The notes beneath the pieces are model-generated. The model was not told the origin of the DNA and made no database searches. It saw only the letters and a list, made by a program, of their open reading frames with translations. DNA of 13,034 bases, from positions 1-13,034 of IMG/VR virus record IMGVR_UViG_2654587571_000008, one strand, 5' to 3'. The translations under genes and the position numbers were made by a program. Numbering within the stretch: position 1 is the stretch's first letter; every line of letters begins with the position of its first letter. The stretch comes from a virus. Taxonomy: Duplodnaviria > Heunggongvirae > Uroviricota > Caudoviricetes. Positions 1 to 13,034 of the stretch are shown piece by piece.

Positions 1-68
1 GGTGGCGGCGGCACAGTTGGTGTGGCGGCCTCAGTCCGGAACAATTTGAAAACCAGAACCTCGCTTAG
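1..68 (+). CDS. IS3-family transposase (OrfB) C-terminal fragment; 5' end outside window
   Basis: Codons 3..65 translate to WRRHSWCGGLSPEQFENQNLA followed by TAG at 66..68. From memory this matches the conserved C-terminus of IS3-type OrfB transposases. Confidence 0.7.
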   Translation, partial: WRRHSWCGGLSPEQFENQNLA

Positions 69-98
69 GCCTGTGTCCATATTACGTGGGTAGGATCA
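1..98 (+). mobile_element. Terminal ~98 bp of an IS3-family insertion sequence (right end, including transposase 3' end); body lies outside the window to the left
   Basis: Positions 4..98 are the exact reverse complement of 12940..13034. The element ends ...GGATCA at 98, matching the TGA...TCA termini typical of IS3-family elements (recalled). The transposase reading frame ends inside it. Confidence 0.75.
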
Positions 99-557
99 GA
101 GTTAGTTGTTATACTCAATCAAATCAGCACACTAACTGCTTTAAGTGAGCATCCAAAACTCGGTATCGGCGCTGTTGACATATCACTTTATAACCAGTCG
201 ATATTAACGTCTGAACATAATGGCAATGTTGCAACCATCGAGATAAAACACCATTATCCAAAGGATTTACTTTATCGGCAAGTTCAAGAAGACATCATTT
301 CCGATATTTCAAGAGTAATAGTTTCACCAACTACACACTTTATCCATATAATCCAGCAAAGAACCAAGATTAAAACTCCTTCTTTTGGTCAAGTGAAATT
401 CCTTGAACGTGATGCAAGTGATATCAGCACTTATGTGCAATGTCTTGAGGAGCTAAGTTCATTTCCCAGTAATTTTCATAAAAAAAGTGTATGTATTGAG
501 GTACTTGGTGAAATTATGTCGACATATACCTTTAACGTATATTCATTTGACAACTGA
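99..557 (+). pseudogene. 5'-truncated ORF of unknown function, cut by the IS end; AT-rich, in the bor-like position convergent with Rz1
   Basis: One frame is open from 69 to the TGA at 555..557 (162 codons) in very AT-rich DNA. The first in-frame ATG/GTG is at 393/516 with no Shine-Dalgarno, and the frame runs straight into the IS end at 98/99. Absent from the supplied ORF track because it has no start codon. Confidence 0.4.
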
Positions 558-578
558 TTAATTTGACAATTTTATTGC

Positions 579-836
579 TTAATGGTTAGTTCTCTCTGCA
601 TCTATTTTACGAATATCAGCTTTATCCCGATTGCAGTTAGCCAGCGCAGACAACAGACTCACATTCAGCTCCAGACTGGCACCATACGTCAGCGGATTAG
701 GTATAAACGGTACAGGAGTATCAGAAGTCAGGCTGGGTGGCAGTGGTGCCACCGGAACGCTCACGTAAACTGTCCGCGTACTTCCGCAACCGGTCAGCAG
801 CGGCAGCAGGCACAGCACGTGAAGCACAATCATCAT
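579..836 (-). CDS. Rz1: Rz1-like outer-membrane spanin lipoprotein (o-spanin), overlapping and extending beyond Rz
   Basis: Alternative frame inside the Rz gene. Begins MMIVLHVLCLLPLLTGC (signal peptide plus LLTGC lipobox) followed by a proline-rich region (VPVAPLPPSLTSDTPVPFIPNP). Confidence 0.55.
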   Translation of the reverse strand: MMIVLHVLCLLPLLTGCGSTRTVYVSVPVAPLPPSLTSDTPVPFIPNPLTYGASLELNVSLLSALANCNRDKADIRKIDAERTNH

Positions 837-1113
837 CCGCAACAGCCATTTTGATATCTTCCTGGGTTCTCTGTGACTCCAGTGCGATCTGCTGTTTTGC
901 ATGCTGGTTAGCCTCCAGTACTGTATTGACGATTTGCAGTGATTGCAGGACGTTATTGGTAATGGCAGTTGCCGATTTGGCATTTTGTACAGCCTCATCA
1001 GCACGTTTCTTTTCGTGCTGATATTTGCTGTAGTAGTGATTCGCTGACCAGATGAAAGAGCCAATAACAGTAAAGAAGAAAGCAGAGATAGTCAGCTTAT
1101 AACTCAACTTCAT
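721..1113 (-). CDS. Rz: Rz-like inner-membrane spanin (i-spanin)
   Basis: 130 aa with an N-terminal transmembrane anchor (LTISAFFFTVIGSFIW) and a charged, coiled-coil-like periplasmic domain. Lies immediately downstream of the endolysin and overlaps its 3' end. Confidence 0.7.
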   Translation of the reverse strand: MKLSYKLTISAFFFTVIGSFIWSANHYYSKYQHEKKRADEAVQNAKSATAITNNVLQSLQIVNTVLEANQHAKQQIALESQRTQEDIKMAVADDDCASRAVPAAAADRLRKYADSLRERSGGTTATQPDF

Positions 1114-1573
1114 TTACCACCCCACCAGCCTCTTTAAATCGGGCAATCAGGTCACCGATTTTATGTTCATACTGACCGTAACCTGCACCGGGTAATGAAG
1201 CCCATATATTGCTGCAACGGTCGATTGCCTGACGAATATCGCCGCTATCAATCATAGGTAAAGCGCCACGCTCTTTAATCTGCTGCAATGCCACTGCGTC
1301 CTGGCTTTTGGGGGAGAAGTCTTTCAAACCAAGCTGTTTACGGTAAGCATCCCACCAACGGGAAAGAAGCTGGTAACGTCCGGCGGCTGTTGATTTGAGT
1401 TTGGAGTTTAGCTTGACAAGTTTGCGAGGGTGATCGGAGTAATCAGTGAACAGTTCGCCACCAACAATAACATCATAACCGTGGTTACGTGTCGGTTGTC
1501 GCCCGTTATCCGTTCCTTCTGACCATGCCACCATATCAAGGAAAGCTTTACGCTGGGAATTTAGTACCTGCAT
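1097..1573 (-). CDS. Endolysin, lambda R-type (lytic transglycosylase, phage lysozyme family)
   Basis: 158 aa. N-terminus QRKAFLDMVAWSEGTDNGRQPTRNHGYDVIVGG and the rest match the recalled lambda R sequence almost residue for residue. Confidence 0.9.
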   Translation of the reverse strand: MQVLNSQRKAFLDMVAWSEGTDNGRQPTRNHGYDVIVGGELFTDYSDHPRKLVKLNSKLKSTAAGRYQLLSRWWDAYRKQLGLKDFSPKSQDAVALQQIKERGALPMIDSGDIRQAIDRCSNIWASLPGAGYGQYEHKIGDLIARFKEAGGVVNEVEL

Positions 1574-1576
1574 AAA

Positions 1577-1912
1577 TTACTCCTTAGAGCCACCAAACTT
1601 GTTACCGATTACTCGCATTGCAGCCCCACGAATAGCATCGACACCGATCAGCCCCACGCCACCACCAATGGCAACAGAAAGCGATTTAGGCCATCCGACA
1701 TACTCAAGAGCGGATGCAAAGGTCAGCGTCAGAGCGCCACAGAGCAAAATCTCGAGCGTTTTTCGCTTCCAGCCACCACCACCGCCAAAATAGGCGATGC
1801 GCAAACCAGCCATAACGATCGACATAATCACTGCACCCAGCGGTGTGTCTCCACGCCACCAGCTCTGAAACAACTCCAGCCAGTCCGGCCAGGTATTTGG
1901 GTTATGAGGCAT
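1577..1912 (-). CDS. Holin, lambda S-like (three predicted transmembrane segments)
   Basis: Start chosen at the internal ATG (1912..1910), preceded by GAGGTGAGAG. Three hydrophobic segments and a charged C-terminus, with AGLRIAYFGGGGG and LIGVDAIRGAAMRVI resembling lambda S. Stop is 3 nt before the endolysin start. Confidence 0.6.
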   Translation of the reverse strand: MPHNPNTWPDWLELFQSWWRGDTPLGAVIMSIVMAGLRIAYFGGGGGWKRKTLEILLCGALTLTFASALEYVGWPKSLSVAIGGGVGLIGVDAIRGAAMRVIGNKFGGSKE

Positions 1913-1955
1913 TTCGTCATCTCTCACCTCGCGATATTTGCGGGTGCTGTGTTGG

Positions 1956-1981
1956 AAATAAAAAGGCCACGCAACGTGGCC
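1956..1981 (-). terminator. Intrinsic terminator between the methyltransferase gene and the lysis cassette
   Basis: Perfect 7-bp GC-rich stem GGCCACG/CGTGGCC (1965..1971 and 1975..1981) with a 3-nt loop, followed on the minus-strand RNA by UUUUUAUUU. Confidence 0.6.
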
Positions 1982-1988
1982 ACCAGAA

Positions 1989-3044
1989 TTATTTCCCCAC
2001 CACCAGTTCACTTACCTCTTTCACCGTCTGATTAAACCGCTCTGTCTCAAGCTCAACACCTAACGCCCGACGCCCCAGCGCCATTGCTGCTTTTATTGTG
2101 GAACCGGATCCCATAAAGAAATCAGCAACCAGATCGCCGGGTCGACTACTGGCATTGATTATTTGCCTGAGCATATCCGCCGGTTTCTCACACGGATGTT
2201 TACCCGGGTAGAACTGAACGGGTTTATGCATCCAGACATCGGTATAAGGCACGGAGACTGATACGGAGAAATAGCGCCGGAGAGATTTAAACTCATCCAG
2301 CAATTCAGAATATTTGCGATTCAGTGAATCATAAGATGCCACCAACTGGTGGTGTGGTTGTTCCAGTTGTTGTTCCTGAAACTTCTCTGCCGCTATACGG
2401 GAAAACAGTGCCTGTAACTTCCGGTAGTCAGCCTCATTCGGCAACTGCCACTGACTGGCACCAAACCAGTGGGAAACCATATTTTTCTTACCTGTGGCTT
2501 CGGCAATTTGTTTTGCCGTTATACCCAGTTCGGCACGAGCATCCCTGAAATACGATATCAGCGGTGCCATTATGTGCTGTTTGAGTTCCCTTTCTTTTGC
2601 CGCATAGCCGTCACTTTTGCCGCGATATGGCCCCTGGTAATGTTCAGCAAACAGAACGCGCTCTGTGGCAGGAAAATATGCGCGCAGACTTTCTTTATTA
2701 CACCCATTCCAACGTCCGGACGGCTTCGCCCAGATGATATGGTTAAGCACGTTGAAACGTTCACGCATCATGATCTCAATATCAGATGCCAGGCGATGCC
2801 CACAGAACAGGTAAAGGCTTCCGGCAGGTTTCAACACCCGCCAGAACTGGGCCAGACAGTGGTCCAGCCACTTAAGGTAATCTTCGTCCCCTTTCCACTG
2901 ATTGTCCCAACCGTTGGGTTTCACCTTGAAGTACGGCGGATCGGTAACAATCAGGTCAATGGAATCATCAGGCAGGGACTGAATAAAATGCAGGCAATCA
3001 GCGTTGATTAAATCAACACTGTTTGTTTTTACAGTATTTTTCAT
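1989..3044 (-). CDS. DNA methyltransferase, N6/N4 family (beta-class, orphan)
   Basis: 351 aa with N-terminal motif IV (IVTDPPYF) and C-terminal motif I (DFFMGSGST). No adjacent restriction endonuclease. Confidence 0.85.
   Translation of the reverse strand: MKNTVKTNSVDLINADCLHFIQSLPDDSIDLIVTDPPYFKVKPNGWDNQWKGDEDYLKWLDHCLAQFWRVLKPAGSLYLFCGHRLASDIEIMMRERFNVLNHIIWAKPSGRWNGCNKESLRAYFPATERVLFAEHYQGPYRGKSDGYAAKERELKQHIMAPLISYFRDARAELGITAKQIAEATGKKNMVSHWFGASQWQLPNEADYRKLQALFSRIAAEKFQEQQLEQPHHQLVASYDSLNRKYSELLDEFKSLRRYFSVSVSVPYTDVWMHKPVQFYPGKHPCEKPADMLRQIINASSRPGDLVADFFMGSGSTIKAAMALGRRALGVELETERFNQTVKEVSELVVGK
3017..3036. promoter_or_regulatory. SOS-box-like palindrome (CTGT-N8-ACAG) overlapping codons 3-9 of the methyltransferase
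   Basis: cACTGTttgtttttACAGTA read directly; compare the recalled LexA consensus TACTGTATATATATACAGTA. It is the only CTGT-N8-ACAG site I found in the window. Confidence 0.3.
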
Positions 3045-3193
3045 GGATCAGTAAGCGTAACTCTGGTAGGCTCACTCTGCTTTTGCGCTAAAGCAGTGGG
3101 CCATGGTTCGCTTGTGACCAGTAAGCATGAGCGAATGGCTGGCAGGTGCTACCAACACCCACCAGCCGCCCATTTTCACAAATTAAAAGCCCT

Positions 3194-3388
3194 TCATTGC
3201 TGAAGGCGTCTGTAACAGCCGAACTGGTAATCTGCCAGCCCCGCCATAACCAGCTGGGTCAGTATTAACTGACAGCGTTCGCGTGAAAGGTATGTGTTTT
3301 GTGCAATCTCCCCGACTGTTGCCGGTTCGATGCTTAATTCATTAAAAACAACTTTCGCCGTTTCTGTCATATCTTGCTGTTTTAGCAT
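3194..3388 (-). CDS. Small (64 aa) putative winged-helix/HTH protein
   Basis: Start placed at the ATG at 3388 with AAGGGA about 8 nt upstream (the track ORF begins at 3412). ATVGEIAQNTYLSRERCQLILTQLVMAG looks like a helix-turn-helix. Confidence 0.4.
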   Translation of the reverse strand: MLKQQDMTETAKVVFNELSIEPATVGEIAQNTYLSRERCQLILTQLVMAGLADYQFGCYRRLQQ

Positions 3389-3509
3389 GTCTTTTTCCCT
3401 TCTGGTTAACATGACATACCAATAACTCTTGTCTAAAAAGCCAGCAAGATAAACAGTCAGTATTCACGACCACCAGCGTGTTTACCGTACTGCACCAATG
3501 TTTAATTTA

Positions 3510-3532
3510 TAAAAAAACCGCGAGAACGCGGT
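3510..3532 (-). terminator. Intrinsic terminator downstream of the 176-aa cargo gene
   Basis: 6-bp stem ACCGCG/CGCGGT (3517..3522 and 3527..3532) with a 4-nt loop. The plus-strand A7 run (3510..3516) gives a U7 tract after the hairpin on the minus-strand RNA. Confidence 0.6.
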
Positions 3533-3569
3533 AAGTATTGTTAAAAAACCAACAGTAATTTCACTCAAC

Positions 3570-4100
3570 TTATTTAATACATTCTTTTGCTTGCGCATAA
3601 TAAATTTTATGAGTATTAGCAAGCTTAACGAAGTTATACTTAACTGCCCCTAACAGGGTTCCAACTCTTGTATGCCCTTCCATTAAATGGAGCCCTGTTG
3701 TATTACTTTTCAGCAAAGCTCGATCTATAAAAAATGGTGGTTCGCACCATGTGCCAAAATTACACCAATGCGCTTTTATTTCATCATCCATAAATACATC
3801 ACCTTTACGGGTCATGTAATCTTCAACGACCTCATGCAAAAAATCAGGGCAAGTAGCATTATCCCCGATAGTTAAAAAGTTTTTAGTGGGAAGTTCAATC
3901 AATTTCCATTCAATTTGGTCAATATCAAGATCCCCATAAAGCTTCTGAAATCTGTCATCACCTACCAATCCATAATAAATCTCCTGAATTACAGGAGAGG
4001 GGGCAATGATAGAATATTGCTCACGAAGTATTCTTTCAGCCTCAGGAGCTTCAAATATGGTTCTTTCTGAGAAAATAGGCAGAAGATCTCGGTATAACAT
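3570..4100 (-). CDS. Hypothetical protein (176 aa), AT-rich cargo gene between Q and the lysis genes
   Basis: Long ORF in locally AT-rich DNA, with a GGGGAT Shine-Dalgarno upstream of the ATG and a strong terminator downstream. No family recognised. Confidence 0.5.
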   Translation of the reverse strand: MLYRDLLPIFSERTIFEAPEAERILREQYSIIAPSPVIQEIYYGLVGDDRFQKLYGDLDIDQIEWKLIELPTKNFLTIGDNATCPDFLHEVVEDYMTRKGDVFMDDEIKAHWCNFGTWCEPPFFIDRALLKSNTTGLHLMEGHTRVGTLLGAVKYNFVKLANTHKIYYAQAKECIK

Positions 4101-4132
4101 CCATATCCCCGTGTAAGAAAAAATAATTTAAC

Positions 4133-4152
4133 CCGCTCGGCTGCGGTTTTTT
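4133..4152. terminator. Short GC hairpin with flanking A and T tracts (candidate tR-prime, possibly bidirectional)
   Basis: CCGC tcggct GCGG followed by TTTTTT on the plus strand and preceded by an A-rich run. On the minus strand it sits about 40-55 nt downstream of the predicted late promoter. Confidence 0.35.
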
Positions 4153-4194
4153 GGACTTATCAACGGTAGACACACAAAGCCCATCGTTGAGAAA

Positions 4195-4223
4195 ATCTTA
4201 TCCATGTTTTTTGAAAAATGCAA
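4195..4223 (-). promoter_or_regulatory. Candidate late promoter (PR-prime-like) immediately downstream of the Q gene
   Basis: Minus strand reads TTGCAT, 17-nt spacer, TAAGAT (complement of 4218..4223 and 4195..4200), in the 154-bp gap between Q and the first late gene. Confidence 0.35.
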
Positions 4224-4254
4224 GCATCATGTCGCTATCTTTGTTGAAAATCAT

Positions 4255-5007
4255 TTATCTTGTCACTTTTCTCAATTGCGCTTCAGCATATGCTTCTTCC
4301 TGCCAGCACTTTGTAACCAGTTTATCAATGACGTCTGCATATCCTTTGTACCACTGATAATCCGTCAGGTCTGTTACCAGATTCTGGACATGACGTCGTG
4401 CCAGTGTGGTTGGTAAACGGCTAAATCGGTTTCCATTGCAACGCCCACAAATCTTATAAACAGGCGTGCCATGAAGCCGGGTTCTTTTTTCATCCAGGAC
4501 AATACCTTTACCCTTACATCCTCTGCACGCTGTGCTGACTTCTCCCTTACCATGACAATGCTGACATAGTTCCTTCACCCACTCTTCCTTGATAACAGAT
4601 TCCCCGTTTCTGGAGTGTTTCACCACTTCGCGCAATACATTATGAAATCCAGTACCAGCACAATGCTCACAGCGAGCCTTACTTGCCGCAGATCTGGAAT
4701 AATCAGCAAAGGCAAAATTCACAAGGTAAGGAATGATCTGTAGCCGGGTTTCTTCACTCAATTTGTTCAATGTCGGGTTATCCAGTGCCATCGCGTAATT
4801 GAGCAGACCTTCAATCGCAAACTGAGGATCCTGAACACCAACTTTTGCCAGGAATAAGGCAAAACCCAGTGGTGCTTTCGACTGCACCATCCCCTGCGCA
4901 GCCATCACATCTGTAATTGTTAAACCACCCGAGCCTGTCGCCGGTGCGTCATCACTCAATTTTGGAGATTTTGGGGAGTAATATTTTGGTAAGGCTTCAA
5001 GGTTCAT
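4255..5007 (-). CDS. Q-like late antiterminator with four CxxCxGxG zinc-finger motifs
   Basis: 250 aa with CEHCAGTG, CQHCHGKG, CRGCKGKG and CGRCNGNR. Sits directly upstream of the late promoter/terminator region. Good GGAGAA Shine-Dalgarno. Length agrees with the long Q-like proteins of E. coli prophages (recalled). Confidence 0.55.
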   Translation of the reverse strand: MNLEALPKYYSPKSPKLSDDAPATGSGGLTITDVMAAQGMVQSKAPLGFALFLAKVGVQDPQFAIEGLLNYAMALDNPTLNKLSEETRLQIIPYLVNFAFADYSRSAASKARCEHCAGTGFHNVLREVVKHSRNGESVIKEEWVKELCQHCHGKGEVSTACRGCKGKGIVLDEKRTRLHGTPVYKICGRCNGNRFSRLPTTLARRHVQNLVTDLTDYQWYKGYADVIDKLVTKCWQEEAYAEAQLRKVTR

Positions 5008-5020
5008 GCTCGTTCTCCAC

Positions 5021-6016
5021 TTACGCCAGTACGCCTATTGCCAGCGCACGATCGATAAAACGAAATATCAGCTCCAACTGGGAGCCATACATCTCTTCAA
5101 ATGCCACGGTATCCGCATGCAGCTCGTCGTGATGCTTTCTGCACAAAGGCAACACAAAGAGGTCATGCGCTTTTGTACCCATTCCCCCCTGACCGTGGCC
5201 TATCAGGTGGTGGGGATCATCAGCAAGCTTTCCACAACATGCACACGGCTGTGTCTTAACCCAGCGCGTGTACTTTTCATTAACCCAGCGGCGACGTTTT
5301 GGGCGTAACATAAAAGACTCCGGCGACTCCGGATCCACTTTCAGCGCCAGCACCTTTTTCGCTTTATCCTGGATAATGCTGGTGGCAGGAACCGAAGGCA
5401 CAAGGTCACTTTCCCGGGTGACAGACGGCACAACAGGCTTCGGTAATCTCAGTGCCTTACGGGCTGCACTTTCCGGTAAGGCATCCGCCAGGTCATTACG
5501 AATCAGCCACCAGCACAGTTCCGGCATTGTCACAACGTGACTGTCATCAAAACCGAGATCCCGACGCACAACAGACAACACCCAACGGGCACAGTTATCC
5601 GTTGCCATTGATTCCAGCCGTTCCGTGAACTGATCGCGCAGCTGGTTATCGCAGTGCCAGCAGAGACGGATTGCGCCCGGAGCGTGCCGCATTGTGGTCA
5701 TGTTCTCGCTGTGCCAGTCGGAATGAGGCCACTGGCAGCCTTTTTCACGAAGTAACCAGCTTTCAAGACATTCCACCCCACCAGCACGACGGATCACTGC
5801 CTCATTGCGGAACACGGCCCGAACGGCAGGATCATCCGCCAGCGGTTGTGATGCCGCGGGAACGGCACCACTGGCGAAAGATGAATAACGTTCCGGCTCA
5901 GGCTCCAGCAGGACACGCCCCTGCATAAACAGGGGCATCAGCTCTGAACCGGGCCTGAACAATACGATCCCCATACGCGGGGCAATTTCAGGGGTCAGTA
6001 GTGCTCTCACAGTCAC
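5021..6016 (-). CDS. DUF968-like prophage protein with a C-terminal Cys/His cluster (HNH-like)
   Basis: 331 aa. C-terminus PCACCGK...DPHH...GGMGTKAHDL...PLCRKHHDELH. Nin-region position between KilA-N and Q. Family assignment is from memory. Confidence 0.5.
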   Translation of the reverse strand: MTVRALLTPEIAPRMGIVLFRPGSELMPLFMQGRVLLEPEPERYSSFASGAVPAASQPLADDPAVRAVFRNEAVIRRAGGVECLESWLLREKGCQWPHSDWHSENMTTMRHAPGAIRLCWHCDNQLRDQFTERLESMATDNCARWVLSVVRRDLGFDDSHVVTMPELCWWLIRNDLADALPESAARKALRLPKPVVPSVTRESDLVPSVPATSIIQDKAKKVLALKVDPESPESFMLRPKRRRWVNEKYTRWVKTQPCACCGKLADDPHHLIGHGQGGMGTKAHDLFVLPLCRKHHDELHADTVAFEEMYGSQLELIFRFIDRALAIGVLA

Positions 6017-6017
6017 C

Positions 6018-6827
6018 TCAATGAACGGTATCGAGCAACTTTAACAGCTCGGGGAATCGGGATTCGAAGAAATGCGGCTGCGTCTCGCGCGGATTTGCGG
6101 GACTGGTGATGTTCTTGCCGAACATGCAGCCTTTCGCTGTCAGCGACCAGAATTTTTTGATGTTGTTAATCGCGGTACGGCTGTATCGTTCGCGCTGCTC
6201 GACGATCCCCAGCTTCACCATCTGGTGATATGCCTGATTAGCTGTCAGGCGGATACCATACTGCTTCAGCAGTGCACTCAGTGACAGCGTGGGGCGGCTT
6301 GAGCCATCAGGCGCGTCAGCAGGAGCATCAATGGCATAGCGCGGTGCCAGATTCGGTAAGCCAACAGCCTCCTGGAGTTTCTGACAGGCACCAAGCACTG
6401 AAGAGTTAGACAGGTTTAATTCCCGGCGCATAAAGTCCAGCAGAATCACACCAGCCTGCATCTTGTCAGCAGCCTGTCCGGATAATTTTTCCGGTGCGCT
6501 GGTTACCATATCGAAAGTACGGATCACCTTCAGATGGAATGACGGGCTGATCCACATTGCATAGGCATACACCAGTTCCTTGCAGACATACGTTCCCCGT
6601 TCATTTCCCCCATGAATCACACTCACCGGGTCAACACCCAAATTCTGAGTGTTGGTCAATTCATGAACAAGCTCAACAGTTTGTTGGCTGGAAAGAAACT
6701 TTCCTGGCTCCTTGGTTCTGGCATTTGCACCAGATGCTACTGCTGCGCGATGCAGATCGTTCAGACTGTAACGCCCATAAGCATCACGACGAACTTCAAT
6801 ACCATCAATGACCATCAGATTATTCAT
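6018..6827 (-). CDS. KilA-N domain protein (antirepressor-like)
   Basis: N-terminal ~100 aa (VIDGIEVRRDAYGRYSLNDLHRAA...GTYVCKELVYAYAMWISPSFHLKVIRTF) fits the KilA-N/APSES pattern. GAGGAG Shine-Dalgarno. Confidence 0.65.
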   Translation of the reverse strand: MNNLMVIDGIEVRRDAYGRYSLNDLHRAAVASGANARTKEPGKFLSSQQTVELVHELTNTQNLGVDPVSVIHGGNERGTYVCKELVYAYAMWISPSFHLKVIRTFDMVTSAPEKLSGQAADKMQAGVILLDFMRRELNLSNSSVLGACQKLQEAVGLPNLAPRYAIDAPADAPDGSSRPTLSLSALLKQYGIRLTANQAYHQMVKLGIVEQRERYSRTAINNIKKFWSLTAKGCMFGKNITSPANPRETQPHFFESRFPELLKLLDTVH

Positions 6828-6846
6828 ACTTCGTTTCTCCTCTTAA

Positions 6847-7236
6847 TCAGGCGGCTGCACCCGCCGTTTTCTCGTACTTACTTATAGTGATCTCGACCTT
6901 CCCTTCCGGGATAACCGGTCCCCACTCCACCAGCATTCTTTTCACCTGACTGTCGTCTTCCCACACACCCGCGTGGGTCAGGGCGTCAAACAGCGCCTTG
7001 TTATAGTTGTCCAGATCGCGGATCCGGTTATCCGGAGGAAACAACACGATCTCCACTGAAGCAGGTGCCGACGTTGGTTTTGGCAGACGACGTAACTGCT
7101 CAACTATTGCTGCACACGCCGCGCTCTGGAATTTGCGCCCCGCCGCGCTTATCAGGCTCTTACCTGCAAACGCCCCTTTGTTGGGGTGTCGCCAGTACGT
7201 GTTCACGCTGGGCGGAAAAGGCAGTATTAGCTTCAT
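6847..7236 (-). CDS. rusA: RusA Holliday-junction resolvase
   Basis: 129 aa. LPFPPSVNTYWRH and RDLDNYNKALFDALTHAGVWEDDSQV match the RusA signature, including the catalytic Asp cluster. Confidence 0.85.
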   Translation of the reverse strand: MKLILPFPPSVNTYWRHPNKGAFAGKSLISAAGRKFQSAACAAIVEQLRRLPKPTSAPASVEIVLFPPDNRIRDLDNYNKALFDALTHAGVWEDDSQVKRMLVEWGPVIPEGKVEITISKYEKTAGAAA

Positions 7237-7559
7237 ACTTTCAGGCCCCTCTCATGTAACCAGTGGGCTGCACGCAGCCTGGCGTTTGCCTCACCGGCAA
7301 GCAGTGCGCGGATAATCCCGACCGCCTCGCTGTCGTCGTCCTTCATCGCGGTATGAAGCGTTATCCCCCGGGCCACGCCACGCTTTATCGTGATGACGCC
7401 TTTTTTCTCCAGTGCTCGAAGATGCTCCACCGCTGCATTCACTGAACGGTATCCCAGCATGGTTGCCACCTCCTGATTGGTTGGCGGGAAGCCACGTTCT
7501 TTCTGGTAAGAAATCAGCATATCCAGCACCTGCTGCTGGCATTGAGTTAACGTCGTCAT
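7233..7559 (-). CDS. Standalone LexA N-terminal DNA-binding-domain homolog (no S24 peptidase domain)
   Basis: Residues 1-70 (LTQCQQQVLDMLISYQKERGFPPTNQEVATMLGYRSVNAAVEHLRALEKKGVITIKRGVARGITL) align with the recalled LexA N-terminus, followed by an unrelated 38-aa tail. ATGA overlaps with both neighbouring genes. Confidence 0.7.
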   Translation of the reverse strand: MTTLTQCQQQVLDMLISYQKERGFPPTNQEVATMLGYRSVNAAVEHLRALEKKGVITIKRGVARGITLHTAMKDDDSEAVGIIRALLAGEANARLRAAHWLHERGLKV

Positions 7560-8209
7560 GCAGCCATCTCCCTGACCAGTTTTTCCGCCTGCTGGCGAAC
7601 CTGCGCCAGAAAGGCCTCACCACATGCCTCAAGTTCATCGCGCCCGATGTAGCTGATTGCCGGTCCCTTCCAGGTCTTGTCGAAAACAGCAATAGCACCA
7701 GCGAAGAAAGCGCCTGTCGGCACCTGCTTCTCATCCTTCGGGATAAACCAGGCAGGCAGTTCAAAACCAATACGCCCGCGAATAAAAGCAATATGATCTG
7801 CATCTTCCGGCCACCACACTTCGCTGGTGGCAGCTTTGATCAGGAAAACATAGCGACCGCCTTTATCACGCATGGCACTGGCATGCTTCATGATGTAACG
7901 CATGCCGGTGATGTATTGCCCCTCATGCTGACTGGCGCGGCTGTATGGGGGATTACCAAAGGCAGCACCTTTAAGCTCCGCAAGACGTTCTGACCAGTCA
8001 TGTGCCAGCGCGTTGTCTTCCGCCGTGTAATACGCGGCACATTTGGCGTTATCACCGTCAGTGAACAGATCCAGAACAAACGGACCAAACAGGGTGTTAA
8101 TTCCCCAGAAAATGTTATCCGGCGTGCGCCACTGATCGCCCACTTCCTTCAGTTCATGGGCTGGTTTGTTCCGCAGCTCCACCAGCGCCCGGCAATATTT
8201 ATTACTCAT
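7556..8209 (-). CDS. Phage Dam-type N6-adenine DNA methyltransferase (orphan)
   Basis: FGNPPYS catalytic motif. Start placed at the ATG at 8209, which overlaps the upstream stop as TAATG (the track ORF extends to 8242). Confidence 0.75.
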   Translation of the reverse strand: MSNKYCRALVELRNKPAHELKEVGDQWRTPDNIFWGINTLFGPFVLDLFTDGDNAKCAAYYTAEDNALAHDWSERLAELKGAAFGNPPYSRASQHEGQYITGMRYIMKHASAMRDKGGRYVFLIKAATSEVWWPEDADHIAFIRGRIGFELPAWFIPKDEKQVPTGAFFAGAIAVFDKTWKGPAISYIGRDELEACGEAFLAQVRQQAEKLVREMAA

Positions 8210-8697
8210 TAAGCCCCCACGTAATTCCCTGACAGATACCACTCTTCACCTGATGCAGCCCGCTTGTTGCTTTTCCGTAAACACCGTTCACGACGCGCCA
8301 GAAAATTATTTCGTTCTGGCTGGGAGTGGCTTTCACGGAATGCCGCCATCCACACCGTTGCAGCACGACGGTATAAGCCCCTGGACTCCAGTTCTTCAGC
8401 CTGGCGGGTCAGGCACAAAATCACCCGGGGGTCGTTAGTGCCGACATAGAAATTGCGCACAGGTCTGGTTTCACGAACTGGTTGTGGTTCCGGCTCCTGC
8501 GCTCTCTCAGTCAGGCGCGGGAAATGTCTGCGTGTATCCCCTTCACAACGGTGAGCCACACGCCCACTCTGACGTAACTTGCTTGCTGACTGCAGAACGC
8601 GCTGCCGTGAGTAACCAGCAAAAGCATCTGCAATGTCTCCGGAAGTACACCCCGGATGAGCTTCAATGAATTTCTGAACGTCATTTAACAGACTCAT
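8209..8697 (-). CDS. Putative PerC/ANR-family-like transcriptional regulator with an N-terminal winged-helix-like region
   Basis: C-terminal ESRGLYRRAATVWMAAFRE...RRERCLRK resembles the GLWRRAA..W motif of PerC-type regulators (from memory). Start could be ATG 8697 or GTG 8703. Confidence 0.4.
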   Translation of the reverse strand: MSLLNDVQKFIEAHPGCTSGDIADAFAGYSRQRVLQSASKLRQSGRVAHRCEGDTRRHFPRLTERAQEPEPQPVRETRPVRNFYVGTNDPRVILCLTRQAEELESRGLYRRAATVWMAAFRESHSQPERNNFLARRERCLRKSNKRAASGEEWYLSGNYVGA

Positions 8698-8699
8698 GA

Positions 8700-9641
8700 T
8701 CACCCCCTGAATCCTGCCGGGATCTGGCTGTAGTCCACGTTGTCGTAACTGGATTTGAAGTACGGGTCTTCGCGTTTTTCGGTGTACGTGCTGACGGACG
8801 GCGATAAGCGCAGGGAAAGCTCATCCCATTTTTCCCGCAGCTTCGACGGGCTGAGCACGTTACGGCACCAGAACGGATCGCGGCTGACGCGGCTGTACAT
8901 CTCGCAGATTTGTTTGTGAGTACGACTATCCTGCACACACATCAGGCGAATTTCGTTTGCCCAGGCTGTCCAGTTCGGTTCTTTGGGACGAACCACCTCG
9001 CCGTCACATTCGGCGGCCTGCTCGTACAGGGCGATGATTTTTTTCCAGAGCCACTGTGCACAGGTCAAATCATCCTGCGTTCCCCACTGGCGCTTTTTAG
9101 GGCTGAATACAACCGCATCAGGATGGCGAGTTAAAAACTCCTGTTCAGCCGTCTGCGTGTCCGGTTGCGAAGCGTCCGGACGAGAAGTTTTTTTATCTGA
9201 CGGATCATGTTTTGATTTTACTGACGGATCCCCGCCAGATTCTGACGGGTGAAAACCCGCTTTTTTGCCAGATTTCGACGCATCAAATTTTGACGGGTCA
9301 GATTTTGATGCGTCAGATTTTGACGGGTCAGAATCTGACAGTTGAGAAAATGCCGCTGCCTGAAGCTTCGCAACGTTAAGCTGATAAACATTCGACGCAT
9401 TGCGGTTACCCTGGCGACGCGCCTTACGCGTTAACCAGCCTTCTGCTTCCAGCCGTGCGATAGCCGTTCTGACGGTACTCATCCCCGCGCCAATCTGACG
9501 GGCAATGGTTTCAATTGATGGCCAGCACACACCTTCGTCATTACTGAAATCAGCCAGGCGGGCCATAATTGCCACACTGGATAACTTCATGCCTGATGCA
9601 GCGCAACCATCCCATACATAGCCGGTTAATTTAGTGCTCAT
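8700..9641 (-). CDS. Replication initiator, lambda O-like organisation (N-terminal wHTH, origin iterons inside the gene)
   Basis: 313 aa. N-terminal HTH-like region (WPSIETIARQIGAGMSTVRTAIARLEAEGW). The central low-complexity DPSKSDASKSDPSKFDASKS is encoded by tandem DNA repeats. Confidence 0.65.
   Translation of the reverse strand: MSTKLTGYVWDGCAASGMKLSSVAIMARLADFSNDEGVCWPSIETIARQIGAGMSTVRTAIARLEAEGWLTRKARRQGNRNASNVYQLNVAKLQAAAFSQLSDSDPSKSDASKSDPSKFDASKSGKKAGFHPSESGGDPSVKSKHDPSDKKTSRPDASQPDTQTAEQEFLTRHPDAVVFSPKKRQWGTQDDLTCAQWLWKKIIALYEQAAECDGEVVRPKEPNWTAWANEIRLMCVQDSRTHKQICEMYSRVSRDPFWCRNVLSPSKLREKWDELSLRLSPSVSTYTEKREDPYFKSSYDNVDYSQIPAGFRG
9195..9345. repeat. Iteron array (candidate replication origin) within the initiator gene
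   Basis: Eight or more copies of a TYTGACGG-type unit, including near-perfect 15-bp tandem repeats (gattttgacgggtca / gattttgatgcgtca / gattttgacgggtca at 9301..9345), plus a nearby A/T-rich stretch. Confidence 0.55.
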
Positions 9642-9650
9642 GACCGACCT

Positions 9651-9989
9651 CTATTTCCCTGAATTTACGACGAAACTGTTCGAGCGGACTGAAGCATTCA
9701 TGCTCATAACCTTCGCGGAGGTAGATAACCCGTTGTGTTTCCGGCTCCCAACGAATGACTCTGACGGGCACTCCGTAGTGATCTTTGAACCAGCGGTTAA
9801 CTTGTCGCAAAGGACTGTCTCCTTCTGCCGGTTGAAATCACCCACAGCCCACTCTGCAAAGCTGTGGGTTACAATTTCCCTGTCACCTGGTACATTCACT
9901 GCATAGCAATATTCCACCTTCGCTTTTCCACCCGGTACAGGAAGCGCAATCAGTTGCGAGCGACGGTAGTGTGTTGTTAAACTGTTCAT
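9651..9989 (-). CDS. Hypothetical protein (112 aa) between the CII-like and initiator genes
   Basis: ATGA overlap with the upstream CII-like gene and AGAGG upstream of the following gene. No family recognised. An overlapping plus-strand ORF (9634..9906) makes the strand assignment uncertain. Confidence 0.35.
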
Positions 9990-10543
9990 GCGTTAGTTTC
10001 TCCACAACCAGAAGCAATCGACGCCACGACGCCCGGAGCTGCACACTCGCGGGCGTCATTACTTTCTGAAATGCAAAAGATTTTGTAGACCAGTGCTGCA
10101 TGCTCCTGCAGCTTCGAAATTGAGAGATACAGCTCGTCGTTAATTGCTGTCTTCTCATGCGGTTCCACTACACCGTCTTCGATTGCTGAACGAATCTGTT
10201 TTGAATAACTGCCGATCTGTTCAATGACTTCCAGCAGACGCTGGTTAATATCGGCGTTGTCCACATCCTCGACGTCAGGAAGAGACACAAATACGCCATT
10301 TGCAGACTGCGCCACAGCATCAGCAATGAAGTGAGTGCCACCAGCACGCTGTAAAACCATTGCCCATCCCAGCGGAAAAATCTGATCGCCATCTGCACGA
10401 AGGCGGTTGAATAAAGCGTTCTCTGTTACATCCAGCCAGTCAGCGGCTTCAGCGTAACCACCCGGCAACGCCGCGATAGTTTTTCTGACAGCTTTCACGT
10501 ACCACTCAGGCTGTTTTTCTATTTTCCAGTGATGCTTACCCAC
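9986..10543 (-). CDS. CII-like phage regulatory protein (185 aa)
   Basis: Start placed at GTG 10543, with AAGGAG 6 nt upstream (the track ORF begins at 10648 and would overlap cro). [16 protein letters not shown] resembles CII-type regulators (from memory). Confidence 0.45.
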
Positions 10544-10565
10544 GGCTATCTCCTTAAAACTGTGG

Positions 10566-10814
10566 TTACTTTTCATCTGATGAATCTTTAATCTTTTGAA
10601 AAATATCTGGACGTAATTTTTCTTTTGATATGCCAGTGGTCTTTTCAATGAATATCGAGAGCTTTGCAGGGGGACGCTTTTCTCTGTTCAACCAGTTCCA
10701 GACATGTTGTTGCTTTACTAAATGACCGCTGCTGGCTGTGAGCTTCCGAGCCAATTCTGATTGACCACCAGCCAGAGCGATTGCCTCCGATAAGGCTAAT
10801 TGCTCAGGTGTCAT
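10566..10814 (-). CDS. Cro-like HTH repressor
   Basis: 82 aa with an HTH (QSELARKLTASSGHL). Divergent from the cI-like gene across an operator-rich intergenic region. GGAG Shine-Dalgarno. Confidence 0.7.
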   Translation of the reverse strand: MTPEQLALSEAIALAGGQSELARKLTASSGHLVKQQHVWNWLNREKRPPAKLSIFIEKTTGISKEKLRPDIFQKIKDSSDEK

Positions 10815-10949
10815 AGCTTTCTCCTTTTTTGGTAGTTAAGTTGTTACGAGTTGCAAGAATACAACATTAACAACTTTTATCACAACTTTTAGGTGTTGGA
10901 AAGCTAAAACATAAAGTTGTAACCTCATCAAAAAAGAGAGGGATATGTT
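10815..10949. promoter_or_regulatory. Right operator/promoter region between cro-like and cI-like genes
   Basis: Contains five copies of AAGTTGT/ACAACTT (at about 10838, 10861, 10870, 10882 and 10914) and AGGTGTT. The same sequence blocks recur at 12560..12620. Confidence 0.5.
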
Positions 10950-11636
10950 GTGAAAACACTGGCAGAACGATTAAAGATAGGTAGAGAGAAAGCTGGCATG
11001 AGCCAAGCTCAACTAGCTGAAAAAATTGGACTTTCACAACAATCTGTAGCCAAAATAGAGAATGGCGAAACTCTACAACCGCGCAAAATTAAAGAAATTG
11101 CAAAAGTTTTAGGTGTATCACAAAAGTGGTTACAACTTGGTATTGAAGATAACGCATCCATACCTGATCTTGTTGTAAAAGAAGCAGAAAGCACCGCATT
11201 AGACCCCGATATTTTCGTAAACATTCCTGTTTTAGATGTCGAGTTATCGGCAGGTAACGGATGTCTGGCTGAAATAGTTGAATCAGCTATTGACTGGTTT
11301 CCGTTAAGAAGAGCAGATTTGAGAAAATCTGGCGTATGTGCATCTAATGCCAAGATCGTAAAAATATGGGGGAACAGTTTATTACCGGTTCTCAATAATG
11401 GAGATCTTGTTGCCGTTGATATTTCTCAAACCGTTCCTATTCGTGATGGCGATCTTTATGCCGTACGAGATGGTGTATTGCTAAGGGTTAAAATACTTAT
11501 CAACTTACCTGACGGTGGCTTGATTCTTAGAAGCTTCAACAAAGATGAGTACCCAGATGAAATACTCACCTTTGAAGATAGACGAGCCAGAATTCATGTT
11601 ATAGGTAGGGTATTCTGGTCATCGCGAACTTGGTAA
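10950..11636 (+). CDS. CI/LexA-type prophage repressor (HTH plus S24 peptidase, autocleavable)
   Basis: GTG start with AGAGAGGGA upstream. N-terminal HTH (MSQAQLAEKIGLSQQSVAKIENGE), an Ala-Gly cleavage site (LSAGNG), catalytic Ser (WGNSLLP) and Lys (LLRVKIL). Confidence 0.85.
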   Translation: MKTLAERLKIGREKAGMSQAQLAEKIGLSQQSVAKIENGETLQPRKIKEIAKVLGVSQKWLQLGIEDNASIPDLVVKEAESTALDPDIFVNIPVLDVELSAGNGCLAEIVESAIDWFPLRRADLRKSGVCASNAKIVKIWGNSLLPVLNNGDLVAVDISQTVPIRDGDLYAVRDGVLLRVKILINLPDGGLILRSFNKDEYPDEILTFEDRRARIHVIGRVFWSSRTW

Positions 11637-12509
11637 TGCATCGAAAAGCATTTCTTCAGAAATAATTTTAAGTTTTGCACCATTATCATCCCTATAAGAT
11701 ATAGCTTTTTCGATCTTCCTTCCGTGACTTGAGAATTTCCAATCACGGGAGGAAAGCGTCCCAATTACTAAAAAATCCAACTTTTGAGTAATTCCACTAC
11801 TGATGTTCCCACCAGCATTTTTAATCAAATTTTCAACTACGGCTCTCTTTCCTGCAACAAAAGTGCCTGTAAGACAATAGGTTTTACCCTCTAACTCTAT
11901 CGAAGCCCCTACATCAATAGGCAGCCTGGTCGCCAAACCATCCACCACCCCACTTTCCAAGTCACATCCTGTGAAGTCTACTAATGCCTTATGTAGAGTT
12001 AAACTCTCATCTTCAGTAATAACCCCATCTTTAAGAATTTCCTTTACAAGTGCATAAAGTTTTTTTCCTGGGTAGTTGTTCTTCAAAGCTCCATTTTGCT
12101 CAAGCCACCAATTAAGATATCTTATTTCTTCTTGAGTTAAGTTCCGATCAGCAATTAATCCTTTACATAGTCCATTAAGTAAATGGACATCTACATCCTT
12201 GGAGTAAAAATCAATTTCAGGGATATCAAGAATTTCCCTCTGTATTTGGAGAAGGCTATTTTTAAGGTCATCACGTTCTTCTGATGTGATTATTCCATCC
12301 GCAAGAATATCCGACACCCGTGCTGATAGACTTTTTATAACTCCATTATTGATAATCTGCTTTGCTTCAAGTAACCATGTATCTAAGTAAAGAACCTCCT
12401 CTTCACGGACAACTCCATCTGCAATGATTCCATCAATGATGCTAATCAAGTTAGCAAATAACTTGTCCCGGTTCTGTGTGTAATTAAAAGCGTAAAGCGC
12501 GTCTTCCAT
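11619..12509 (-). CDS. Uncharacterised protein with four N-terminal DG-x-I-T-x-EE repeats (TerB-like?) and a C-terminal BRCT-like domain; candidate superinfection-exclusion/defence gene
   Basis: Start placed at ATG 12509, with AGGAGG 5 nt upstream. C-terminus GKTYCLTGTFVAGKRAVVENLIKNAGGNISSGITQKLDFLVIGTL...AKLKIISEEMLFDAL follows the BRCT pattern of NAD-ligase C-termini. The 3' end overlaps the cI-like gene by 18 bp. Confidence 0.6.
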   Translation of the reverse strand: MEDALYAFNYTQNRDKLFANLISIIDGIIADGVVREEEVLYLDTWLLEAKQIINNGVIKSLSARVSDILADGIITSEERDDLKNSLLQIQREILDIPEIDFYSKDVDVHLLNGLCKGLIADRNLTQEEIRYLNWWLEQNGALKNNYPGKKLYALVKEILKDGVITEDESLTLHKALVDFTGCDLESGVVDGLATRLPIDVGASIELEGKTYCLTGTFVAGKRAVVENLIKNAGGNISSGITQKLDFLVIGTLSSRDWKFSSHGRKIEKAISYRDDNGAKLKIISEEMLFDALPSSR

Positions 12510-12559
12510 ACAACCTCCTTTTTTTGATAATCCTTGCACTCCTTGGCTACTCGTTCAAA

Positions 12560-12625
12560 CCACATAAAGTTGTTGACAACATTCAAAACCACAACTAAAT
12601 TACAACTTAAAGGTGTTAAAACAAC
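12560..12625 (+). promoter_or_regulatory. Left operator/promoter region with a PL-like rightward promoter
   Basis: Consensus -35 TTGACA (12573..12578), 17-nt spacer, -10 TAAATT (12596..12601). An imperfect dyad AAGTTGT-TG-ACAACAT (12567..12582) overlaps the -35. Operator motifs are shared with the right operator region. Confidence 0.5.
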
Positions 12626-12697
12626 GAACAGGCAGGACGCCCACGAAGTAGCCGCCTGGGGCATATGAAGTCCAGGATGATTCGTTAGCAACAAAAA

Positions 12698-12729
12698 AGC
12701 GCCCTACAGGACGCTTAGCTCTTTAACAA
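12698..12729 (+). promoter_or_regulatory. Candidate antitermination (nut-like) site: boxB-like hairpin followed by an rrn-type BoxA
   Basis: Hairpin AGCGCCC-uaca-GGACGCU (12698..12715, one mismatch), then GCTCTTTAACAA (12718..12729), identical to the recalled core of the E. coli rrn BoxA. It lies in the leader between the promoter and the first gene. Confidence 0.45.
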
Positions 12730-12774
12730 TCTGGTCCCCATCAACAAGTAACTGATAACTTGAGGAGGTGTGAA

Positions 12775-12942
12775 ATGCACAAAACAGAACCAAAAATCGT
12801 CGCACCCGGATACACAAATGAGGAAATTTACGAGTGGATGGCAAAGAAGCTGGCAGCTATAAACCAGCTTCGTGAAGTGCTGTCTTATCGACAGGAAACA
12901 ATAGACTCCTTAAAAAAACTGGATCAGGAAATCACGGTTTGA
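12775..12942 (+). CDS. Small ORF (55 codons) of unknown function, probably 3'-truncated by the IS; stop codon supplied by the IS terminus
   Basis: Strong AGGAGG Shine-Dalgarno 6 nt upstream of the ATG. The TGA at 12940..12942 is the first three bases of the IS end. Confidence 0.45.
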   Translation: MHKTEPKIVAPGYTNEEIYEWMAKKLAAINQLREVLSYRQETIDSLKKLDQEITV

Positions 12943-13034
12943 TCCTACCCACGTAATATGGACACAGGCCTAAGCGAGGTTCTGGTTTTCAAATTGTTCC
13001 GGACTGAGGCCGCCACACCAACTGTGCCGCCGCC
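12940..13034 (-). mobile_element. Terminal 95 bp of a second, inverted IS3-family copy; body lies outside the window to the right
   Basis: Exact reverse complement of 4..98. The window ends inside the element. Confidence 0.75.
12970..13034 (-). CDS. IS3-family transposase (OrfB) C-terminal fragment; 5' end outside window
   Basis: Mirror image of 1..68, with the stop codon TAG at 12972..12970 on the minus strand. Confidence 0.7.
   Translation of the reverse strand, partial: RRHSWCGGLSPEQFENQNLA

Follow-up and report, generated by a model that had tools for sequence, protein, structure and literature searches.

The 13,034-nucleotide (nt) stretch analysed here, called the window below (positions 1 to 13,034 of the Caudoviricetes record IMGVR_UViG_2654587571_000008), carries two genes for N6-adenine methyltransferases, an early one at 7556..8209 and a late one at 1989..3044, both on the minus strand. 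Very probably, the two are independent orphan enzymes that serve the phage lytic cycle, the early one methylating GATC and the late one adenines in any context, with the late gene silenced in the lysogen. Once the cI-type repressor is inactivated, the early rightward promoter would drive the early gene along with the genes for replication and those of the nin type, and its product would, judging from its family, most likely methylate GATC on replicating phage DNA. The late enzyme, judging from characterised homologues, would most likely methylate adenines in any context shortly before packaging and lysis. Progeny DNA would thereby be broadly protected from type I, II and III restriction sensitive to N6-methyladenine (m6A) in the next host.

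A preliminary description of this DNA had proposed that the enzymes protect phage DNA or act epigenetically. Anti-restriction turned out to be the best-supported role of both, whereas an epigenetic role in the lysogen is unlikely in view of the location of both genes in lytic operons and the reported silence of the related M.EcoGI and M.EcoGII. Methylation of adenines regardless of context is harmful to the cell, which requires the late gene to be off in the lysogen. Its position behind Q-dependent late terminators would contribute to silencing, and the conservation of two further elements, a LexA operator in codons 3-9 and base pairing of the leader just 5′ of the start codon, suggests that these probably contribute as well.

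Late and early methyltransferases

The late open reading frame (ORF) is full length and encodes 351 amino acids (aa). It matches PF01555 (N6_N4_Mtase, E 3.5e-42) over residues 29-341, around an insert of approx. 100 aa. The order of its motifs, DPPY at residues 35-38 and FxGxG (DFFMGSGST) at residues 308-316, is that of the beta class. Two-block matches were likewise obtained with M.RsrI, M.MboIIA and CcrM, relatives of solved structure. In the RefSeq annotation of Escherichia coli PS1Thumoskin9 the product is named 'DNA-methyltransferase'. Alignment with M.EcoGII, the sequence of which was machine-read from the PDF of Table S1 in PMC11551740 with a few obvious errors, revealed 283 identical residues out of 350 (81%), and 60 out of 78 in the target-recognition domain. 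The late enzyme is nearer to Anc291 (89% identity), a reconstructed ancestor active on DNA and RNA with no discernible motif (PMC11551740), than to M.EcoGII, and it carries 12 of the 13 clade-I signature residues that distinguish the M.EcoGII clade according to the list in the same paper. Identity amounts to 82% with the phage 1720a-02 methyltransferase, described as highly similar by Murray et al. 2018 (PMC5778455), and to 63% with p25 of Serratia phage OS31, which showed relaxed specificity in restriction-protection experiments (PMC7556043).

M.EcoGII methylates adenine in any context and modifies up to 99% of adenines in vitro (PMC5778455). Its expression slows growth, and no methylation signal was found in the native lysogen (PMC5778455). 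Homologues of M.EcoGI and M.EcoGII were reported to be unexpressed in lysogens (PMC5778455, PMC4659465), and in ST131 a homologue sharing 99% identity with M.EcoGI shows no transcriptional activity. By analogy, the late enzyme is probably a functional non-specific m6A methyltransferase of the M.EcoGI/M.EcoGII family, and its closeness to these enzymes (81%) implies that it probably has no target motif. Consistent with function, the ratio of nonsynonymous to synonymous substitution rates (dN/dS) of the late gene is 0.07-0.09, with dS at 1.4-1.8 or saturated, indicating strong purifying selection, and its DNA is 98.7% identical to copies in other E. coli genomes. The orphan state and the late-operon position of the gene fit prophage genes of the M.EcoGI/M.EcoGII type. 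It directly precedes the holin gene in 1720a-02, OS31, PhiR46_1 and phiP27, divergent phages from Serratia and E. coli. OS31, phiP27 and 1720a-02 retain the gene order Q, small ORFs, methyltransferase, holin; in PhiR46_1 the methyltransferase is followed by the holin, with no Q annotated within the fetched stretch. In Stx phages, toxin genes are inserted after the late methyltransferase. These considerations have practical consequences. The absence of a new methylation motif upon expression of the late gene would not refute its activity; toxicity and motif-free hypermethylation of adenines should be expected of the enzyme, which changes both the design and the reading of methylome and restriction-protection experiments.

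The early ORF encodes 217 aa when read from its ATG, the longest possible frame beginning at a GTG at position 8242. It belongs to PF05869 ('Dam', E 1.2e-45, 155.7 bits against a cutoff of 28.1) and TIGR01712 (phage_N6A_met, 255.6 bits against a cutoff of 97.05), with NPPY at residues 86-89, and is called 'phage N-6-adenine-methyltransferase' by RefSeq in PS1Thumoskin9. The protein is 99% identical to the gene product of phage 1720a-02, and copies of the gene with 100% identity occur in several strains. Members of PF05869, as judged by score, include T1 Dam, HP1 orf13, the dam gene of Staphylococcus phage 80 and a lactococcal 936-group methyltransferase. In the alignment with the HP1, phage 80 and 936-group members, the catalytic NPPY as well as WxTP, LD, NAK and DW are invariant. 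In a Pfam profile search neither methyltransferase of the window matched PF02086, which we take to be the alpha-class family of E. coli Dam and T4 Dam. Thus, the designation 'Dam-type' given to the early enzyme in the preliminary description is appropriate in the sense of PF05869 (T1 and HP1 Dam) and does not extend to PF02086. The assignment of the two genes to different families of N6-adenine methyltransferases (PF05869/TIGR01712 versus PF01555) holds, and the catalytic and S-adenosylmethionine-binding motifs of both proteins are intact.

T1 Dam and HP1 Dam are GATC enzymes. M.Phi93DAM methylates GATC as well, as demonstrated by SMRT sequencing and by digestion with DpnI and DpnII (PMC4190342), and PamA renders DNA sensitive to DpnI (bioRxiv 10.1101/2024.04.17.589803). 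Its NPPY motif and its phage 80 dam homologue suggest that PamA and the early enzyme are probably members of one Pfam family. By analogy with these relatives, it is fairly likely that the specificity of the early enzyme is GATC. Comparison by sequence with the Protein Data Bank yielded no solved relative. Two other candidate relationships were rejected. PF05869 is not the family of Hin1523 and Hia5, which Drozdz et al. show to be alpha-class Dam relatives, and M.EcoGV, referred to as a 'Dam homologue' in O104:H4, is an unrelated DPPW enzyme, discussed by its authors as being of the MT-A70 type, and does not qualify as a characterised counterpart of the early methyltransferase. Rare public gene calls fuse the early methyltransferase to a neighbour, either as PerC-Dam (380 aa) or as Dam-LexA-like (approx. 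292 aa), probably as a result of single-base changes at the overlapping junctions. Many relatives with 80% identity (in Cronobacter, Atlantibacter and others) are 285-327 aa long and possess an extra C-terminal segment.

A putative LexA box and a structured leader at the late gene

The preliminary description had noticed an SOS-box-like site at the late gene, and this observation stands. The palindrome TACTGTAAAAACAAACAGTG occupies positions 3017..3036, i.e. nt +9..+28 or codons 3-9 of the late methyltransferase ORF, and fits the pattern CTGT-N8-ACAG with an AT-rich spacer. On a LexA matrix it scores 21.3 bits compared to 12.8-27.2 bits (median 19.6) for known sites, a caveat being that the matrix is an informal one, compiled from 21 LexA sites of E. 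coli. In 300 Markov simulations of the window this score was never attained, and the box is the only strong LexA site in the surrounding 49-kb locus.

Conservation of the site was followed in 80 species-representative loci with homologues 62-93% identical to the late enzyme, in 78 of which the start codon and enough upstream sequence could be placed. A LexA hit of at least 15 bits is present in 55 of these 78 homologues, across Enterobacterales, and in all 55 it lies at +9..+28. Only nine other hits of at least 15 bits were found in 943 kb. Codon usage in the box was tabulated for 79 sequences, those of the window and of the 78 loci. Codon 4 is ACT in 56 of the 57 that encode threonine there, codon 7 is ATA or TTA in 71, and codon 8 is AAC, TCC, CAC, CCC or ACC in 60, encoding N, S, H, P or T but always ending in C. 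At invariant residues elsewhere in the late methyltransferase, all four third bases are used. The CTGT and CAG bases of the arms are thus kept while the encoded residues vary. The position before CAG alternates between A and C, which matches the tolerance of LexA, and does not covary with its partner base, and the four arm pairs never vary. These features favour a DNA site bound by a protein over pairing of the two arms in an RNA hairpin, which we rejected on these grounds. The same box at +9 occurs in a species-representative genome of E. albertii, in a homologue that has the first 12 residues of M.EcoGII.

Exceptions were found. The short N-terminus of the OS31 type removes the left half of the box. 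The copies from Photorhabdus and Xenorhabdus have lost it, and in several of them codon 3 is an in-frame stop, suggestive of decay or of initiation at a different codon. A Rosenbergiella homologue has no box inside the gene; a LexA box of 24.4 bits lies 317 nt upstream instead.

Upstream of the box, approx. 135 nt between a terminator-like hairpin at the end of the preceding gene, orf72, and the methyltransferase ATG (3045..3180, minus strand) form a conserved structured leader. In alignments of 48-56 species loci, conservation reaches 90% or more in many leader columns even though dS of the gene is saturated; it exceeds by far that of synonymous sites in the late methyltransferase. The fold has a z-score of −4.25. 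In the consensus structure, 97.1% of cells are paired and eight pairs show compensatory changes; 0 of 500 shuffles matched this, and slid controls were 20-47% paired. The many conserved G-U pairs point to the sense strand, i.e. the mRNA. One helix pairs GGTC with a conserved GATC at −7..−4, directly 5′ of the ATG, and no clear Shine-Dalgarno sequence is visible in front of this start codon. The leader was found in 60 phage records and abuts the methyltransferase gene in both records checked (phiP27 and vB_EcoM-720R4).

Several other explanations of the leader were considered. Rfam (at gathering thresholds over the whole window, and at E<=1 over 2950..3600) and ARAGORN revealed no known RNA in it, and a known riboswitch or a tRNA was rejected accordingly. 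A 33-codon ORF within the leader was rejected because one-nucleotide indels among the homologues break its frame. A LexA-controlled antisense small RNA over the leader is disfavoured, since the G-U pairs of the sense strand correspond to A-C mismatches in the antisense strand and the candidate −35 element is not conserved.

These observations lead us to the tentative proposal, to which we give slightly less than an even chance, that genes of the M.EcoGI/M.EcoGII family carry a two-part safety lock consisting of the LexA operator in codons 3-9 and the covarying leader. As judged from sequence conservation, the methylase would belong to the SOS regulon, LexA would block leakage past the late terminator and the leader would limit translation. 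One could speculate that LexA bound to the candidate box acts as a roadblock to read-through from the late promoter. If the proposal is true, the lock explains how prophages keep an indiscriminate methylase silent in lysogens, and a very common prophage gene joins the SOS regulon of many Enterobacterales. A description of a LexA site or a leader at these methyltransferase genes was not found in the literature searched, the incompleteness of which makes this weak evidence of novelty.

Several points weigh against the proposed functions and regulation. The LexA box lies inside the ORF with no convincing sigma-70 promoter overlapping it; a consensus scan found no minus-strand sigma-70 promoter in 1500..4400, and candidates identified by eye are weak. 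The activities ascribed to both proteins of the window derive from their relatives. The early enzyme is only 24-39% identical to members known to methylate GATC and has N- and C-terminal extensions and two insertions, so that its specificity could differ from GATC. A GATC enzyme moreover looks redundant in a dam+ host. Structure prediction of the early enzyme gave an unusable model, the model confidence (pLDDT) being 38.6 with an alignment of 20 sequences of low diversity. Finally, the prophage is defective, as outlined below, and the enzymes cannot benefit infectious progeny here.

Prophage context and alternative roles

The window is 100% identical to positions 879931-892964 of the chromosome of E. 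coli PS1Thumoskin9 (NZ_CP180607.1). According to RefSeq annotation, the surrounding 49 kb constitute a lambdoid prophage adjoining icd, bounded on one side by intE and xisE and on the other by pinE and mcrA. The position next to icd is the e14 attachment site. The window corresponds to the part of this SfV/mEp460-like defective lambdoid prophage that serves regulation, replication and lysis. It lies exactly between two copies of the insertion sequence (IS) IS3 in opposite orientation, the portions of which inside the window (1..98 and 12945..13034) were delimited by alignment break points. A third IS3-family element (7213..8390 of the 49-kb locus) takes the place of most of the tail region, and tail genes are missing. 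Together, the three elements and the missing tail genes indicate that the prophage is defective; despite this, the repressor switch, Q and the lysis genes look intact. The early methyltransferase gene was matched at three places in NZ_CP180607.1, pointing to several related prophages in the strain.

The genes on the minus strand follow the order cro, cII, O-like, PerC-like, Dam, LexA-like, RusA, KilA-N, DUF968, Q, orf176, orf72, methyltransferase, holin, endolysin and spanin, in agreement with the earlier placement of one methyltransferase in the early operon and of the other, between Q and the holin, in the late region. A divergently oriented gene on the plus strand (10950..11636) encodes the cI-type repressor with an S24 autopeptidase domain (PF01381 and PF00717), which would hold the two methyltransferase operons repressed in the lysogen. 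Among the minus-strand genes, the cro-like gene (10566..10814) and the O-like replication gene (8700..9641) are followed by a gene for a PerC-family protein (8209..8703, PF06069), the stop codon of which overlaps the start of the early methyltransferase gene (TAATG). The stop codon of the latter in turn overlaps the start (ATGA) of a gene for a protein of 108 aa that consists of a LexA DNA-binding domain only (7233..7559, PF01726, E 2.9e-19), and the stop codon of this gene overlaps the RusA start. The 108-aa protein aligns to residues 2-70 of E. coli LexA (E 6e-16), reading SVNAAVEHL opposite SPNAAEEHL of LexA, and is devoid of a cleavage or dimerisation domain. It could be an uncleavable LexA mimic.

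The late region begins with an intact antiterminator gene Q (4255..5007, minus strand, PF03589, E 1.6e-53), the product of which presumably activates late transcription through the methyltransferase and lysis genes. Between Q and orf72 lies orf176 (3570..4100, minus strand), an AT-rich gene (approx. 36% GC; phrog_8867, function unknown) that looks like a moron and is a rare insert. A candidate late-promoter region 5′ of orf72 consists of an intrinsic-terminator-like hairpin (3517..3532, minus strand) and a conserved promoter-like stretch (approx. 3413..3500); the same terminator and conserved block precede the orf72 homologues of 1720a-02 and phiP27. orf72 itself (3194..3412, minus strand; phrog_331, function unknown, E 5e-35) has weak matches to the winged-helix models DprA_WH and TrmB, and may be a regulator or the first late ORF. 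It almost always lies just 5′ of the late methyltransferase (69 of 70 viral contigs) and is present in 54 of the 78 species loci. The terminator-like hairpin at its end, a candidate tR′ (3191..3206, minus strand), is visible at the same place in most homologous loci. The terminator scan found another such hairpin between the stop codon of the late methyltransferase and the holin (1965..1981, minus strand).

Two further loci were noted. A gene on the minus strand (11619..12539) converging on the repressor gene encodes a 306-aa protein with a C-terminal BRCT domain (phrog_3989, function unknown) and a weak match to the PADLOC candidate defence model PDC-S48. Between the integrase gene and icd (36020..37357 of the 49-kb locus) lie a gene for a HEPN/Toprim-associated-domain protein and another hypothetical gene, which may represent a defence islet at the attachment site.

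The lack of a restriction-enzyme partner, as claimed before, was corroborated. The neighbours of the late gene are the holin gene and orf72, those of the early gene encode the PerC-like and the LexA-like protein, and none of them matched a restriction-enzyme model of Pfam or PADLOC. The sole restriction gene in the 49-kb region is mcrA, of type IV and specific for 5-methylcytosine, at a distance of approx. 14 kb. The joint occurrence of two methyltransferases, highlighted in the preliminary description, proved ordinary. A late methyltransferase with 98% identity or more, together with sufficient sequence 5′ of it, was available in 70 IMG/VR viral contigs; the early gene is present in 50 of them, the LexA-like gene in 62, orf72 in 69 and orf176 in only 2. 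Both genes reside at the same positions in 1720a-02, are annotated in SfV, SfII, mEp460 and several induced E. coli phages, and were found by tblastn in Stx2c phage records. A megablast search of 5426 complete E. coli genomes detected the late gene in 1235 (23%) and the early gene in 2120 (39%). The pair is thus routine, a standard layout of a large group of lambdoid phages that is already annotated and known. As such it matters little, all the more as both families are annotated and widespread and the biochemistry of the late one has been worked out to the point of commercial sale as a reagent. More promising are the structured leader and the apparent LexA operator that seem to guard a gene of the M.EcoGII type.

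Four other roles of the enzymes were weighed. It is improbable that the methyltransferases are epigenetic regulators of host genes in the lysogen in the manner of M.EcoGIII or PamA. Prophage methyltransferases can reprogramme host expression, as reported for PamA and, as far as a citing paper relates, for M.EcoGIII, and PamA appears in the Pfam family of the early enzyme. However, both genes of the window are inside lytic operons repressed by cI, the related M.EcoGI and M.EcoGII leave no signal in their native lysogen and the ST131 homologue is inactive. Moreover, host Dam already methylates GATC, and an extra GATC enzyme adds no new mark.

Very unlikely is a main activity of one or both enzymes on RNA such as rRNA, possibly with a neighbouring product as specificity subunit. 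The idea draws on the ability of M.EcoGII and the reconstructed ancestors to methylate RNA in vitro, and on a prophage enzyme of another kind, an MT-A70 'DNA adenine methyltransferase' that targets 16S rRNA when bound to its partner (PMC10810198). The translational coupling of the early gene to the gene for the LexA-domain protein would supply a candidate partner. Yet M.EcoGII is more active on DNA than on RNA, and M.Phi93DAM methylates GATC when expressed alone. A LexA-like gene is near the late methyltransferase in only 9 of the 78 species-level loci, and phage records with distant relatives of the early enzyme list other neighbours in place of a LexA-like gene.

Hardly any more credence can be given to the view that the genes are decaying remnants of a dead prophage encoding inactive proteins, for which one could invoke the interruption by IS elements, the missing tail genes and the in-frame stops in the Photorhabdus and Xenorhabdus homologues. 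Both ORFs are full length with intact catalytic and S-adenosylmethionine-binding motifs, near-identical copies exist elsewhere (98.7% for the late and 100% for the early gene at the DNA level), dN/dS is low at the values given above, and Q, the cI-type repressor and the lysis genes are intact, too. The least probable alternative, an unrecognised restriction-modification or defence pair in which orf176, the DUF968/HNH or the KilA-N protein supplies the nuclease, could appeal to orf176 as an AT-rich rare insert of unknown function near the late methyltransferase and to a weak HNH-like match in the DUF968 protein, but orf176 occurs in only 2 of the 70 methyltransferase-bearing loci, neither orf176 nor DUF968 matches a restriction-enzyme or defence model of PADLOC, and a non-specific methyltransferase offers no defined site for a cognate nuclease to share. 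DUF968 (YdfU) is, we assume, also present in the Qin prophage of E. coli K-12, which has no such methyltransferase.

Comparison with known systems

In the preferred reading, two orphan enzymes acting in the lytic cycle, each methyltransferase has recognisable counterparts. The early enzyme resembles T1 Dam, HP1 Dam, M.Phi93DAM and probably PamA of PF05869 in being a small orphan encoded in the replication or early region of a phage. It departs from these members by its terminal extensions, its two insertions and its low identity, and the GATC specificity of its enterobacterial lambdoid clade is deduced from them. Compared to E. coli Dam and T4 Dam, it probably generates the same product, G(m6A)TC, by means of a different family and motif order.

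The late enzyme shares with M.EcoGI and M.EcoGII from the prophage of E. coli O104:H4 C227-11 (PMC5778455) a length of approx. 350 aa, the N-terminal DPPY, the central target-recognition domain, the C-terminal FxGxG and the orphan state in a lambdoid prophage, while diverging from M.EcoGII by 19% in sequence. The enzymes of relaxed specificity OS31 p25 and Aeromonas PhiARM81ld_p56 (PMC7556043) fall into the same family. OS31 also shares the position between Q and the holin, its N-terminus being shortened with loss of the left half of the LexA box, unlike the gene of the window.

Beyond this family, Hia5, Hin1523 and Nma1821 of Mu-like prophages are unrelated enzymes of the alpha class. Mu Mom differs in family or in chemistry, and its control lies with Dam, OxyR and Com, not with a LexA box. 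What these systems have in common with the strategy proposed for the late enzyme is a late, sequence-independent modification of adenines, which makes DNA resistant to many restriction enzymes and is kept off in lysogens.

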